DNA from: an uncultured bacterium
GTDB taxonomy: Bacteria > Krumholzibacteriota > Krumholzibacteriia > LZORAL124-64-63
Reading direction: 5' to 3'
Assembly (NCBI GenBank): GCA_963732385.1
Contig: CAVSZB010000006.1
Span: forward strand, 32,001 to 96,000
DNA: 64,000 nt
Shown: one piece after another, positions 21,313 through 30,558 of the stretch
How the letters are laid out: the number at the start of each line of letters is the position of its first letter
Position numbering within the stretch: the first letter of the stretch is position 1
The notes under the pieces: model-generated
Told to the model about the DNA's origin: nothing
Database searches by the model: none
The model's input: the letters and a program-made list of their open reading frames with translations, nothing else
Position numbers and translations under genes: made by a program

Positions 21313-21756
21313 CTAGCGAGCGAACAGGAGATTGAGCGTCGCCTGGTCCGGCGTGCCGTCCTCGTTGAAGTCGTATTCGACGGAGGCGCCGCTGAGCCCC
21401 AGGCTGTCTTCGGAAAACGCGACGTCGAATTGCCACGAGAACAGCATTCCCTGTGGCGTCAGGCTCAGTACGTCGCTGCTCAGGGTCCACGTTCCATCCG
21501 TCGTGCGCTCTGCTTCGGCGAAAGGCGCGACGACGAGCCGAAATGTTTCATTGTCGTTGAGGGTGAGCGTGCCGGTTCCTCCGAGCGCGACAAGATCGAC
21601 GGCGGCGCCCGCGGGAATGCTCACGAACTCGACCTTGGTGGCGTTCCAGACGCCCGTGATCTGCTCCGGCTGCGGACCGGTGGATTTGTCCTCGCTGCAT
21701 CCGACCATCACGCAGAGCAGAATTGCCGCCGTCACGATTCGCCAGCTCGTTCGCAT
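21313..21756 (-). CDS. Lipocalin-like lipoprotein
   Basis: Lipobox 'MVGC', 'ITGVW' (GxW) and 'GTWTL' beta-barrel pattern. Confidence 0.6.
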   Translation of the reverse strand: MRTSWRIVTAAILLCVMVGCSEDKSTGPQPEQITGVWNATKVEFVSIPAGAAVDLVALGGTGTLTLNDNETFRLVVAPFAEAERTTDGTWTLSSDVLSLTPQGMLFSWQFDVAFSEDSLGLSGASVEYDFNEDGTPDQATLNLLFAR

Positions 21757-22026
21757 GTCGGCCTCCCCGCTCAGGAATTGCTTCCCGGCGATCTGGGCTA
21801 TACCCCGAGTCCGCTCCTCTGCCCCGAATAGACCAGCGCGGTGGTTCGCCTTTGAGCGGCGGTCGCCCTGAGCACGCGGCTCAGACCCTATGGAGTGACC
21901 GGCCCCCCTGTCGTACCGTCGTCACCGTCGTTCTGGTGGTTGGCGATGGCGACCGGGTGGCAAGCACCGCAGTCGCGGGTTAGCGCCTTTCGGCGCCAGA
22001 GCCGCATACGACGAAGGGAGCCGGCC

Positions 22027-23091
22027 ATGGCCAGTATAACCTACGTGGGGCTGGATGTGCACAAGCGGACGATCGCGGTGGCGCTGCGCCGCCCGGGGAC
22101 CGACGAAGTGGTCGAGTGGCAGGTCGCCCACGAGCCGACGGCCGTGCGGCGACTGATCCGCAAGCTCAAGGCGCACGCCCCGGTGGCCTGCGCCTACGAG
22201 GCGGCCGAGATCCCCTGCCTGGTCGCCGCCCCGTCCCTGATCCCGGTCCGCTGCGGCGACCGCATCAAGACCGATCACCGCGACGCCCGCAAGCTGGCCC
22301 AGTTGTTCCAGGCCGGGCTCCTGACGGCGGTGCACCCGCCGACAGAAGACGAGGAGGCGGTCCGCGACCTGTGCCGCTGCCGCGAGGACGCGCAACTGGA
22401 TCTGGTGCGGGCCCGGCACCGGTTGGGCAAGTTCCTGCTGCGCCGCAGCTTGAGCTTCCATGACGGCTACCTCTGGTCCCAGCGTCATCGCACTTGGATG
22501 CACGGCTTGACGTTCGCGCGGGCCGCCGACCAGGTCGTCTTCGAGGACTACCTGCTGGCGGTCGAGCAGCAGGAGGCCCGAGTCGCCGCGCTGGACGAGC
22601 AGTTGGCCGCCGTCGCGGATCAGGAGCCGTTCCGTGCGCCGGTGGTGGCCCACCTGCGCTGCTTCCGCGGCATCGACACGGTCACCGCCGTAAGCCTGGT
22701 CGCGGAGCTGCACGATGTGCGGCGCTTCGCGTCGGCTCCCGCCCTCATGGCCTATCTCGGGCTGGTCCCCAGCGAGCACAGCAGCGGCGAGCATCGTCGG
22801 TGCGGCGGCATCACCAAGACCGGCAATCGCCACGTGCGGCGCCTGCTGATCGAGACCGCCTGGCACTACCGGCACAAGCCTACGGTGGGGGTGAAACTGG
22901 TCAAGCGCCGGCACGGCCAGCCGCCCGTGGTCATCGCCCGCGCCGACCGGGCGCAGCAGCGCCTGTGCAGGCAATACCGGTGCATGGTCGCCAAAGGCAA
23001 GCATCACAACACGATCGTCGTGGCCATCGCCCGCATGCTGGTTGGATATCTGTGGGAGACGCTGCGCACTGCGCAGCCTGTCGAAGCCTGA
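22027..23091 (+). CDS. IS110 family DEDD transposase/recombinase, probably with a short in-frame deletion
   Basis: 'YVGLDVHK', 'YEA', 'KTDHRDA' (DEDD); 'GLVPSEHSSG' serine motif; 'ITKTGN...RRLLIE'. Confidence 0.92.
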   Translation: MASITYVGLDVHKRTIAVALRRPGTDEVVEWQVAHEPTAVRRLIRKLKAHAPVACAYEAAEIPCLVAAPSLIPVRCGDRIKTDHRDARKLAQLFQAGLLTAVHPPTEDEEAVRDLCRCREDAQLDLVRARHRLGKFLLRRSLSFHDGYLWSQRHRTWMHGLTFARAADQVVFEDYLLAVEQQEARVAALDEQLAAVADQEPFRAPVVAHLRCFRGIDTVTAVSLVAELHDVRRFASAPALMAYLGLVPSEHSSGEHRRCGGITKTGNRHVRRLLIETAWHYRHKPTVGVKLVKRRHGQPPVVIARADRAQQRLCRQYRCMVAKGKHHNTIVVAIARMLVGYLWETLRTAQPVEA

Positions 23092-23144
23092 ACAAACGGA
23101 ACGGTCCGACGGTCGGAGACGGCGGATGAACGCAGGCACGATCC

Positions 23145-23287
23145 GGAGAATCCGCGTTATCGGTGTGCGACTGGGCCATTGGGTCCAGACTCACGATCTC
23201 AGAGTGCGGTCCCTCCCGACGGAGCACGGTCATGCGGCTCGGCGCCGGCTTGCCGGCGCAACCCGCGTATATCAGAGTGACTCGTCG
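23145..23287 (+). ncRNA. Putative bridge/seek RNA of the IS110 element (two stem-loops with internal guide loops)
   Basis: Folds by eye into two stems with internal loops; loop 1 carries TATCG and CTCAG (target match), loop 2 carries GGTC and ATATCAG (donor-end match). Confidence 0.7.
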
Positions 23288-23396
23288 TCGAAGCGACCTG
23301 CCTCGTCCGCCGCCTCCGGATGTCGGAACCGGGAAAAGACAAGAGAACGGCCGCCTCCCCGCAGGAAAGCGGCCCTTGACACAGGGTCACTCCATA

Positions 23397-24071
23397 TCAG
23401 CGATAGAGGGACTTAACCGCGCTCCAGCTGACCGCTTCGACGGGCACCAGCGTGCCGTTGACAGTGAAAACCGGCGAGTTCGGGCCGGCGGGCAGCGGTC
23501 GCAGGCCGAGCACTCCGTAACAGGGGCTGTCGACGAACAGGCTGTCGAAGTAGTAATACAATGTCGGCAGCCCGTCGTCCGTCCCGCCGTTGGCTCCGAC
23601 ACCCATGCCGATCGCAGCGGGAGCATTGTCCAGCGCCATGAGGCCAACGCGCATCAGGCAGCGGTCGATCAGGCAGGTGGTGGATGACGGCCAGAGCATG
23701 TTGTTATAGGAGTAGCGCGCATCGATGTCAGGATTCGTGTTCGGGAAAAATACGCCGCACAGTCCGCCCAGTGATGTATCGAAGTTGATGATCCAGAGAT
23801 TAGCGGGAATCTCGATATGGCACAGCAGCTGCATCTGGTAGTACATAAGAAACATCGGATGTCCGACCGCCGCGGGCAGGTCCGAGACCGGGCGATCAAG
23901 GAGCAGATACAGCCAGAACGGCTCATAGGGCGCGATTGTGAGCCGACTTGCGTTTCCGTCCTCGTCTGCGTAGAGCCCGACGGAGATTTCGCTCACTTGC
24001 GCCAGGCCCAAAGCCGCGGCGCCCGCGACCGCAACGGCCAACATTGCCGCACAAAGCCACCTGAACTTCAT
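23397..24071 (-). CDS. Secreted hypothetical protein with C-terminal 'VPVEAVSWSAVKSLYR' tail
   Basis: Signal peptide, 'VGLYADEDG' start of mature region, GGAGG RBS; the stop codon is the IS core. Confidence 0.75.
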   Translation of the reverse strand: MKFRWLCAAMLAVAVAGAAALGLAQVSEISVGLYADEDGNASRLTIAPYEPFWLYLLLDRPVSDLPAAVGHPMFLMYYQMQLLCHIEIPANLWIINFDTSLGGLCGVFFPNTNPDIDARYSYNNMLWPSSTTCLIDRCLMRVGLMALDNAPAAIGMGVGANGGTDDGLPTLYYYFDSLFVDSPCYGVLGLRPLPAGPNSPVFTVNGTLVPVEAVSWSAVKSLYR

Positions 24072-24348
24072 GGCGCCTCCCGCCGCAATCGTCGCCCCAC
24101 TTGCAGACCGAAGCGTCACCCTGAGTGTAGGGGGTTGGTTCTGACGCGGCAAGTACTCGGCCGCGCCCCGGCGGGTTCATGCCGCAGTCGGCCGGTATCA
24201 TGATGCTGCACAGCGACTTCAGGACTCCCGAGGCCTTTTTCTTGTCCCTGATGCTCGGGCTCGGTAAGCTGCGGCGGCCCCGGACGACGCACGAATTCTC
24301 GTGAGGAGCCGGAAAGGAATCCGTTCCCCCTTGCAGGAGGATTCGCTC

Positions 24349-29604: not shown

Positions 29605-29625
29605 TCCTGTCCGTGAACCGCGGCG

Positions 29626-30558
29626 TCAGCGGTACGTACGCTTGACCCCGCCCCACGAGGCGCCATCGATCGGTGTCGGATCGCTGTCGGTCACGACCCA
29701 GGCGCCGGGGTTCCAGGATGCGACGCCCGTCTGCGTGCCGAACGTCGTCATAATGCAGCGGTACGGCTCGATGTTGGCCTCGAGCAGCAGGCCGTCGGGA
29801 TCGGTGGACTGCGCGTAGTAGCCGATCCAGCGCGGCTGGCCAACGCCGACCGCGAACTGGGCCGCGCCGAGGATTTCGACCAGCGGCACGTCGCCCACGG
29901 AGAGGCGGCCCACCAGCGCCCGGACCTCGTCCGCCACGGCCCAGCGCCAGCCGGGGTGGGCGGTCAGCCAGATCGCGATCTCCGCGCGCGTCAGGCCGAC
30001 GAACTGCGCGGGGTCGGACCAGTAGAGCCCCGTGGCCTGGTCCAGGAAGTACTGCCCCGCGCTGCCCGCGTTCTGCAGGCGCGGCTGCGTCGTCGGATCG
30101 CCGGCGTTGACGAACCAGCCGCCCGGATTCCACGTCGCCACGCCGCTCTGAGAGCCGGGATCGACGAGCACGGCGTTGTCCTCGGACTGGATGAGCCACC
30201 CGTCGGGGACGAGGCCGGCGTAGTAGCCGATCCAGCGCGGCCAGTCGGAGCCGACGGTCCACTGCCGGGGACCCATGACGTCTTCGAGGCTCGAACCGGA
30301 CGGGGCCGTGCTGCCGGCGAGGGCGTCGATCTGCGCGCTCGAGGCCCAGGTCCAGCCCGTGGAGTTGTTGACGATGAAGACGTCGAGCTGATCGCGCTCC
30401 GCTTCGGTCAGAATGTCCGGATCGCACCACGTCAGGCCCGAGGCGGGATCGTAGAAGAATTCGCCGTGGGCGCCGCGATCGGCGAGCTCGGCGGCGCCGC
30501 CGACGGCGGCGCCCGCCAGCAGGATCGCAGCGGCGATCGTCAGGGCACGCAGCAACAT
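29626..30558 (-). CDS. Secreted protein with two tandem DUF1566/Lcl-like repeats and C-terminal 'TPIDGASWGGVKRTYR' tail
   Basis: Signal peptide; internal duplication ('D..(S/T)GL.W', 'GW.WA', 'PRWIGYYA', 'GVA.WNPG.W' each twice). Confidence 0.75.
   Translation of the reverse strand: MLLRALTIAAAILLAGAAVGGAAELADRGAHGEFFYDPASGLTWCDPDILTEAERDQLDVFIVNNSTGWTWASSAQIDALAGSTAPSGSSLEDVMGPRQWTVGSDWPRWIGYYAGLVPDGWLIQSEDNAVLVDPGSQSGVATWNPGGWFVNAGDPTTQPRLQNAGSAGQYFLDQATGLYWSDPAQFVGLTRAEIAIWLTAHPGWRWAVADEVRALVGRLSVGDVPLVEILGAAQFAVGVGQPRWIGYYAQSTDPDGLLLEANIEPYRCIMTTFGTQTGVASWNPGAWVVTDSDPTPIDGASWGGVKRTYR

Follow-up and report, generated by a model that had tools for sequence, protein, structure and literature searches.

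The window analysed here is a stretch of 64,000 nucleotides (nt) from an uncultured bacterium (contig CAVSZB010000006.1 of assembly GCA_963732385.1). It contains an insertion sequence (IS) of the IS1111 group within the IS110 family, which lies directly against the stop codon of a gene for a secreted-looking protein. The C-terminal motif of this protein, [WFY]-[GS]-x-x-K-x-x-[YF]-R, is shared by a family of paralogues, referred to below as tail genes. The element is predicted to encode, downstream of its transposase gene, a seek or bridge RNA with guides that match the Tyr/Phe-Arg-stop codons at the end of such genes. The features discussed are collected in Table 1. Loci, genomes, contigs and metagenome runs are denoted by L, G, C and X, respectively, and the genome of the window is G000.

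Table 1. Features of the locus, of the element and of its remnants in the same genome; RNA modules and terminator are predictions
Feature	Position	Strand	Basis or remark
IS1111-group (IS110 family) insertion sequence, whole, 1516 bp	21883..23398	+	7-bp left and 3-bp right extension convention, no target duplication
Left junction, GGCTCAG	21878..21884	+	old TGA stop of the gene (minus strand) with the next base downstream; the portion that guide 2 matches
Left subterminal inverted repeat, TATGGAGTGACC	21889..21900	+	perfect 12-bp reverse complement of 23385-23396
DEDD (RuvC-like) IS110-family transposase gene, 354 amino acids	22027..23091	+	Pfam PF01548, PF02371; NCBIfam NF033542
Target-binding module of seek/bridge RNA (predicted)	23145..23209	+	consensus structure, pair counts, guide/flank covariation
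Target module, outer stem	23152-23156 (CCGCG) with 23205-23209 (TGCGG)	+	
Guide 1, 5' loop strand	23157-23165	+	reverse complement of core and right flank
Target module, inner stem	23166-23170 with 23191-23195	+	
Guide 2, 3' loop strand	23196-23204	+	identical to left flank and core
Donor-binding module (predicted)	23217..23287	+	outer stem 23217-23222 with 23282-23287
Donor 5' loop strand	23223-23232	+	GGTC matches reverse complement of left end
Donor 3' loop strand, ATATCAGA	23269-23276	+	right end, core and first left-end base
GC-rich hairpin followed by T-rich run, terminator-like, facing the host gene	23349..23374	-	terminator scan
Right subterminal inverted repeat, GGTCACTCCATA	23385..23396	+	preceded by invariant TTGACA, 23376-23381
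Tail gene, secreted-looking protein of 224 amino acids ending ...SWSAVKSLYR	23397..24071	-	list of open reading frames; signal-peptide-like N-terminus
Second tail gene, ...SWGGVKRTYR	29626-30558	-	unoccupied near-match at its stop, 29625..29634
Right-end remnants in the own genome (G000)	C4:12097-12191 (L002 1501-1594); C5:377573-377633 (L003)		

The element and its insertion site

Relatives from other genomes align with the window element from 21883 up to 23398-23402, and a metagenome contig of 1555 nt covers 21881-23399. The boundaries are thereby observed directly, although equivalent placements, shifted by the AG shared between the two ends, are possible. The 12-bp subterminal repeat is conserved throughout all relatives aligned. 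With the repeat taken as an 11-bp core, the element is written as AGACCCT, repeat ... repeat, ATC, with the 7- and 3-bp extensions known from the group (PMC11187229), and under this writing two empty sites, described below, are restored without gain or loss of a base. Of the non-coding DNA, 307 nt (23092-23398) follow the transposase gene and 144 nt (21883-22026) precede it. The C-terminal GL-P----S(T)G motif of the IS1111 group is present in the window translation, as YLGLVPSEHSSGE, and in the aligned relatives too. The window element shows every defining feature of the group that could be tested.

On the minus strand, positions 23405..23397 read TAT CGC TGA and end the open reading frame 23397..24152, which has an ATG at 24071; the G and A of this TGA (23397-23398) lie inside the element as placed. 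TCAG is found twice, at 21881-21884 and 23397-23400. In a genome of the same genus (G002), the orthologous locus lacks the element: both flanks are 92-93% identical to those of the window (L045 1485-1510), and the site reads ...acgcggc-TCAG-CGATAGAGG, with 21882 joined to 23399. The original prediction, made from the window alone, had reconstructed the empty site as gcggC-TCAG-CGATA, which is what G002 carries; the stem, the loop strands and the Tyr-Arg-stop codons which it had described are likewise all found where it had placed them.

The same prediction took TCAG as the core, regenerating the stop codon upon insertion. The stop is indeed rebuilt, but the exchanged core is probably only the dinucleotide AG (CT on the gene strand), made up of the last base of the Arg codon and the T with which the stop begins. 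At the ortholog of the L005 locus in genome G115, which is empty, the gene ends TTC CGG TAG, while the occupied L005 locus reads TTC CGG TGA, then the IS, then CTAG. The comparison of these junctions places the exchange at the A (T on the gene strand) or at the AG/CT dinucleotide. Most relatives have CTAG at the left junction and TCAG or TCAC at the right one; their target stop is TAG, with the right end of the IS supplying the GA of a new TGA. This replacement was checked at one empty orthologous site, that of G115. In the window the four bases TCAG look repeated because the old stop was already TGA and the right end of the IS finishes in TC. In targets with CGG as the Arg codon, the first core base is not the same at the two junctions, a difference consistent with a tolerated GT core.

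Contigs joining across the element, as expected from empty-site polymorphism, were found in none of the four metagenome runs examined; the sole joint listed for those runs was an internal skip of 826 nt, in one X4 contig. Genome G002, in which the site orthologous to that of the window is empty, carries a solo left end of 97 nt behind TTAG (G002:C11; L062 1499-1595), 99% identical to the window copy.

A predicted two-module RNA downstream of the transposase gene

For 12 elements, which belong to three clades, an alignment was made of 160 conserved nt in the 3' region. The consensus folds into seven helices, arranged in two modules, each composed of a stem, an internal loop and a second stem. 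Compensatory double changes are observed in 16 of the 31 pairs among these 12 elements. The stem that had been predicted to enclose the internal loop is that of the first module. Paired cells reach 92.7%, compared with 81.2% in shuffles (none of 500 attained 92.7%) and with 25-42% when the partners were slid. The frequent G-U pairs favour the plus strand for the RNA. The stems are kept by compensatory change, and the match goes beyond chance. No Rfam covariance model came near its gathering score over 21500-23800, the best being an unrelated leader (24.1 bits versus 47.4).

Within the internal loop of the target module of the window, TATCG occupies 23158-23162 and CTCAG 23198-23202. The loop of the other module is related to the ends of the element itself: its 3' strand matches the own ends in 12 out of 12 elements, and in L010 a T-to-G change is found in the loop strand and in the IS end alike. 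The 5' donor strand matches less well, over 4 nt, with one covarying position in L012 and a poor match in L020, L026 and L036. An RNA that binds the transposase and is required for transposition, together with a circular intermediate, belongs to the definition of the IS1111 group; here, too, the RNA would be produced and bound by the transposase.

Covariation of guides and flanks

Guides and targets were compared in a fixed register, in which guide 1 is read as complementary, in reverse, to the core, to the five bases of the right flank and to a single base on the far side of the core, and guide 2 is identical to five left-flank bases and the core. For 15 guide classes, 181 of 225 positions match the own target, whereas permutations treating the elements as unrelated give a mean of 130 (standard deviation 7.4), and 0 out of 100,000 reach 181. 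When only flank positions are considered, the own-target matches are 109 of 150, versus 64.3. The window element itself matches at 7 of 8 positions with guide 1 and at 5 of 7 with guide 2. Guide 1 is matched at all eight positions in L011 (TTCCGCTA, Phe-Arg-TAG target), L055 (TACCGCTA), L012 (GCTAGCTA), L019 and L026, the last of which has a complete guide 2 match (7/7) as well. The tetranucleotide at the left junction (TCAG, CTAG, TTAG or GTAG) always agrees with guide 2. Guide 1 also follows the aromatic codon of the target, being TACCG in L004 and L055, TTCCG in L011, and TATCG in the window and in L057.

A sister lineage with the same terminal repeat is inserted at non-tail sites (L105, in G156:C219, and L106, in G122:C166). 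In its two members the guides are GCGGGCTA and CCGGGCTA, next to right flanks of CCCGC and CCCGG, respectively; they match at the 7 known target positions (the left-junction base was not read), and the two guides differ from each other exactly at the positions at which the flanks differ.

In these alignments the two loop strands behave as target guides that covary with the flanks of their own element. That loops change along with targets across homologues had been proposed as a check of the original prediction, and the prediction passes it, the guide/flank covariation being a direct observation.

Insertion sites of relatives and remnants

Elements were gathered from three sources, namely species-representative genomes that were scanned, 208 genomes belonging to the phylum, and fetched regions, and their ends were read with one pattern. 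In 7 of 18 fetched regions the right-end pattern found nothing, and none of the seven was counted. The site count was restricted to elements having a guide 1 of the Tyr/Phe-Arg-stop type and a visible right flank. Such elements abut the stop of a gene ending in the tail motif in 14 cases out of 15, in 10 genomes (the window copy, L004, L005, L006, L009, L017, L036, L007, L011, L053, L055, L056, L057 and L102), while elements with other guides are found at tail genes in 0 cases out of 10. The exception, L008, sits at GATC-TCAG-CGATC, lacks a tail motif and agrees with its own guides in 7 out of 8 and in 6 out of 7 positions; its non-tail site is the outcome that the RNA rule would predict. Copies are thus distributed as had been anticipated for a guide programmed to the Tyr-Arg-stop end of the tail family, and their enrichment at YR- and FR-stop gene ends extends to the remnants (14 of 14).

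The latter are right-end remnants which keep the repeat, and all abut tail-gene stops (L002, L003, L068, L072, L075, L089, two in L090, L091, L093, L094, L096, L100 and L101); L002 and L101 probably represent one ancestral event. Each is made up of the new TGA stop, the 12-bp repeat, TTGACA and the GC hairpin, for a length of 50-150 nt, with variable inner boundaries. They are present in 11 genomes, and form the 3' end of 4 of the 17 tail genes of the own genome. Two places in the latter match only the last 64-95 nt of the element, directly behind tail genes (KSLYR and KNLFR; Table 1), and a more decayed right-end remnant lies at C7, about 1435650-1435754. A site-specific origin of the right-end remnants was considered and dropped, since the inner boundaries differ and decay with the hairpin kept fits better. 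One more element, L063 (G127:C41, about 470 nt, guide 1 not found), is internally deleted, retains both ends and is located at a tail-gene stop.

In metagenome run X2 the element forms a separate contig of 1555 nt, with a depth of 50 versus 7 for the contig of the tail gene. Loose contig ends in X2 and X8, behind 23399-23414, lead to the ends of another four tail genes. From copy to copy, neither the flanking tail genes nor the left flanks are related.

Some further arrangements were noted. L036/L059 (G153, 816 nt) is, like L063, a non-autonomous derivative with an internal deletion and both ends, at a tail-gene stop; L036 retains the whole RNA region. Another element, with a GCAG end, is nested beside L057. 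Tandem triplets of tail genes, 77-91% identical paralogues, are found at G110:C1:946773-949800, G109:C5:199286-202131 and G112:C153:6496-9500; in the G110 triplet an element is present at the outermost tail gene only. In L092, L095, L097 and L098, a near-identical hairpin lies 20-35 nt behind the TAG or TGA stop of a tail gene, with no subterminal repeat; such hairpins could represent either a common type of native terminator or remnants whose decay is complete. L104 contains two tail-gene ends with neither repeat nor hairpin, and L099 and L103 have no tail motif.

The tail family and the hairpin of the right end

The tail protein of the window matches no Pfam or NCBIfam family, and its 11 homologues are all unnamed or annotated as 'hypothetical'. 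A literature query for Eisenbacteria with C-terminal and signal peptide returned nothing. In the own genome 17 genes end in the tail motif, most of them with signal-peptide-like N-termini, and 'secreted-protein tail' seems a fair description of the family. The pattern used for the motif finds 29 genes in G110 and 43 in G109, versus 2 and 0 in the controls.

The hairpin at the right end of the IS has 11 pairs, 8 of them GC, and is the 1 found by the terminator scan, where 0.6 were expected. On the minus strand (23374..23349) it is located 23 nt past the new stop. Close relatives and all right-end remnants retain it. It would act as an intrinsic terminator for the tail gene, and in the remnants it may have been kept because it now terminates the gene. 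The next gene downstream on the minus strand, 21313-21756, encodes a lipoprotein-like protein (MRTSWRIVTAAILLCVMVGCS...) and lies about 125 nt behind the tail-gene stop when the site is empty; the inserted element, with its hairpin, would cut read-through from the tail gene into it.

TTGACA, 15 nt inside the right terminus, is invariant in the aligned relatives, in three clades from different phyla, and could be the -35 box of a promoter formed in the circular form. A promoter across the joined ends was nevertheless dropped as a candidate: no convincing -10 partner was seen at 16-18 nt when the joined ends were read by eye, and the one site found by a promoter scan is unrelated to TTGACA.

State of the window copy

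The window transposase exceeds the cutoff of NF033542, 'IS110 family RNA-guided transposase' (218.9 bits versus 140), and matches PF02371 (1.4e-21) and PF01548 (1.7e-12). The latter match is confined to profile positions 92-150, since about 13 codons are deleted, in frame, directly after the catalytic Glu (around 22197-22204). In the protein alignment, relatives have GPCGYALQRQLQGL after this Glu, where the window protein shows a gap of about 13 residues. Contigs of three metagenome runs, 90-95% identical to the element, have 31 extra letters between 22197 and 22204; the joint at these positions overlaps by 8 bases. This overlap suggests that the deletion arose by loss between short direct repeats. 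Because of the deletion, the window copy is probably dead, or at least immobile. Frameshifts are present in the transposase genes of L005, L006, L009 and L017, which come from long-read assemblies; no bearing on activity was drawn from them.

Proposed mechanism and alternative explanations

The observations are best explained, as a whole, by an IS1111 seek or bridge RNA aimed at the Tyr/Phe-Arg-stop ends of tail genes, a reading to which we assign a probability of roughly 0.88. According to it, the element would encode the two-module RNA downstream of its transposase gene, with one loop matching its own joined ends and the other a target of 8-10 nt, of the form T-A/T-Y CG-S T-AG or T-GA on the gene strand. 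This target would be the Tyr or Phe codon, the Arg codon and the stop codon which end genes of the ...WGxxKxx[YF]R secreted-protein family. A circular form of the element would recombine with the target at CT (AG on the IS strand), where the last base of the Arg codon meets the first of the stop; the exact positions of cleavage are deduced from the junctions. The element would enter between the Arg codon and the remainder of the stop, its right end in every case against the gene. The right end would supply GA for a new TGA, and the hairpin and T-run which follow could terminate the transcript. The protein would be unchanged, and the old stop would stay at the far junction.

Several observations count against this reading. 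The fold of the window RNA, taken alone, is unexceptional (z = -1.62; 11 of 200 shuffles fold equally well), the permutation test on guides and flanks ignores the kinship of the elements, and the own genome has a single full copy of the element, with a damaged transposase. Pairing extends over few bases and is imperfect in some elements: one guide mismatch each is found in L007 and L056, the match of L015 needs a one-base shift, the right flank of L025 fails to match (4/8), and L005, L006, L009, L017, L036 and L102 have TTC (Phe) targets with TAT or TAA guides, matching at 5-6 of 8 positions. Matching sites also lie away from tail genes. Two further exact TATCGCTGAG sites exist in the own genome, both away from tail genes, and of its 15 TAYCGSTGAG sites only one is a tail end; in G110, where the pattern detects 29 tail genes, at least 13 of the 87 TWYCGSTAG sites coincide with their ends. 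The guide alone predicts far more non-tail insertions than the 1 in 15 observed; the G110 copies examined are all at tail ends (4 of 4).

The window offers an instance of the same kind. The stop of its second tail gene had been singled out as an unoccupied near-match, and g-TCAG-CGGTA (29625-29634) is a real one, with one mismatch to guide 2 and one G:U against guide 1. It is not special, since a better unoccupied tail site exists elsewhere in the own genome (C4:16066, TACCGCTGAG), besides the two exact non-tail 10-mers. As a separate observation, TWYCGSTAG occurs about seven times less often than its reversed control (87 versus 625 sites in G110, 86 versus 587 in G109); this rarity is consistent with an avoidance of CTAG, and such avoidance would make a target that contains CTAG more specific.

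A match of 8-10 nt cannot, alone, account for the near-exclusive occupancy of tail genes, and either the loss of harmful insertions or a further recognition step must therefore add to it. The guide could be only loosely specific (about CG-N-T-A/G), and the presence at tail ends could arise mainly after insertion, by selection: copies inside genes would be lost, while copies at stop codons would persist, keeping the protein and bringing a terminator, and to call the RNA programmed for the tail family would overstate its role. The proportion of tail ends among matching sites (about 15% of the 9-mers in G110, 1 of 15 relaxed 10-mers in the own genome) is in favour of this account, as is the use of Phe-type targets by Tyr-type or near guides, with two non-matching positions, and L008 shows that non-tail sites can be used. 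Neutral intergenic 9-mers should then be occupied too, yet 28 of 29 ends are at tail genes; moreover, guide 1 tracks the varying aromatic codon, which indicates selection on the guide to match tail codons. We consider this account, as a replacement for programmed targeting, possible but the less probable one; it complements guide-directed insertion and does not exclude it, and near-exclusive occupancy of tail ends would then result from guide specificity together with the loss of harmful insertions elsewhere. Occupancy above the level predicted by 8-10 nt could also reflect an additional reader of the tail-coding DNA, such as contacts of the transposase or a further RNA segment that pairs with the conserved Lys or Trp codons upstream, with a target longer than 10 nt. 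Right flanks do share CTT (Lys) and CCA (Trp) at fixed distances, but this conservation is imposed by the protein motif and carries no independent weight, no further complementary segment is seen in the aligned RNA, and L008, L105 and L106 are inserted in the absence of any tail motif. Such a reader is, on balance, unlikely.

It was first suspected that the conserved 50-95 nt behind tail genes are a native 3' untranslated region, with the IS ending further inside, and that they spread by duplication of tail genes: the own genome has the segment behind two other IS-free tail genes, and similar GC hairpins, without the repeat, occur behind further ones. This was dropped on the alignment of relatives to the window right up to 23398-23402, at the stop codon, and on the two empty orthologous sites (G002 and G115), which lack the whole segment, hairpin and repeat included. 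The repeat is, in addition, an exact inverted copy of the left end, and neither the tail genes nor the left flanks are related between copies. We regard a native origin as very improbable.

Guide-directed insertion at tail ends leads to a more speculative thought. Element and tail family may be locked together, with decayed copies repeatedly kept as the stop codon and terminator of genes; this is doubtful. If so, the insertion sequence would be a recurrent donor of 3' gene ends for a family of secreted proteins. It is an equally tentative suggestion that the host cannot mutate the target, which combines a sorting-type motif with the stop, and that a recognition step acting on tail-coding DNA outside the 8-10 nt of the guide match is added.

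Comparison with known systems

Published systems are compared here as described in excerpts of the cited papers. The closest are the IS1111-group elements with a seekRNA (ISEc11, ISKpn4, ISPst6 and ISPa11; Siddiquee et al. 2024, PMC11187229), which have the same DEDD transposase, the same subterminal repeats of 11-13 bp with asymmetric extensions, no target duplication, and the same long non-coding region downstream of the gene for the transposase. In their seekRNA, too, the match to the top strand lies 5' of the match to the bottom strand, and the two overlap in the target. The targets described for them in these excerpts are repeated non-coding elements, namely REP (repetitive extragenic palindromic) sequences, integron attC sites and transposon inverted repeats (PMC11187229). 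The lineage of the window differs in aiming at the last two sense codons and the stop of a paralogous protein-coding family, and in bearing a terminator-like hairpin that faces the gene; these traits are known here from sequence alone.

The bridge RNA of IS621 (Durrant et al. 2024, PMC11208160) has the same two internal loops, for target and donor, on the same plan, each with one strand matching the left bottom strand and one the right top strand, and a CT core takes part in both pairings, that with the target and that with the donor. IS621 tolerates non-CT first core bases such as GT (PMC11208160), which fits targets of the L005 type (CGG T). Unlike that of IS621, the predicted RNA of the window is in the right end, not in the left one, and the order of its target strands is reversed; the window element also has long subterminal repeats and shorter guide-target matches (about 8-10 nt in total). 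ISPpu9 of Pseudomonas putida (PMC12288879), of the same IS110 family, likewise has an RNA gene downstream of the transposase gene, AG at its junctions, and separate partial modules and remnants in the genome. It targets REP sequences, and its isolated modules correspond to the RNA gene (PMC12288879). The isolated pieces of the window lineage are, in contrast, the terminal 50-150 nt, without the RNA.

Tn7, with its site attTn7 behind glmS, and integrative elements restoring the 3' ends of tRNA or protein genes also make use of a conserved coding end and leave the product unchanged. There a single-copy site is recognised by a protein or through an integrase att site, while here an RNA guide would address a multi-copy one. 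IS110 elements of the IS900/IS901 type insert between the ribosome-binding site and the start codon, in one orientation. They are likewise aimed at a translation signal of the host, the start there and the stop here, with no gene-family motif involved. The hed reading frame of IS900-type elements lacks a ribosome-binding site and a start codon of its own (PMC8141618).

IS110/IS1111 recombinases are under development as genome-writing tools, and their known natural targets are repeated non-coding elements. The guide described here appears tuned to a short sequence fixed by protein function and by the stop codon. The relatives provide a natural guide-target series, with at least 15 guide classes and graded mismatches, including a GT instead of a CT core, and lend themselves to work on the choice, by mobile elements, of multi-copy sites where insertion does no harm. 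They also mark an uncultured phylum's secreted proteins with the C-terminal ...WGxxKxx[YF]R tail, a family that is so far uncharacterised. Literature searches on IS110, IS900 and bridge RNAs (supplements aside) found no paper in which targeting of stop codons or of gene-family tails is described. The window element leaves the known mechanism unchanged; what is new is the class of target, the coding end and stop of a paralogous gene family, where the stop is rebuilt and a putative terminator delivered.

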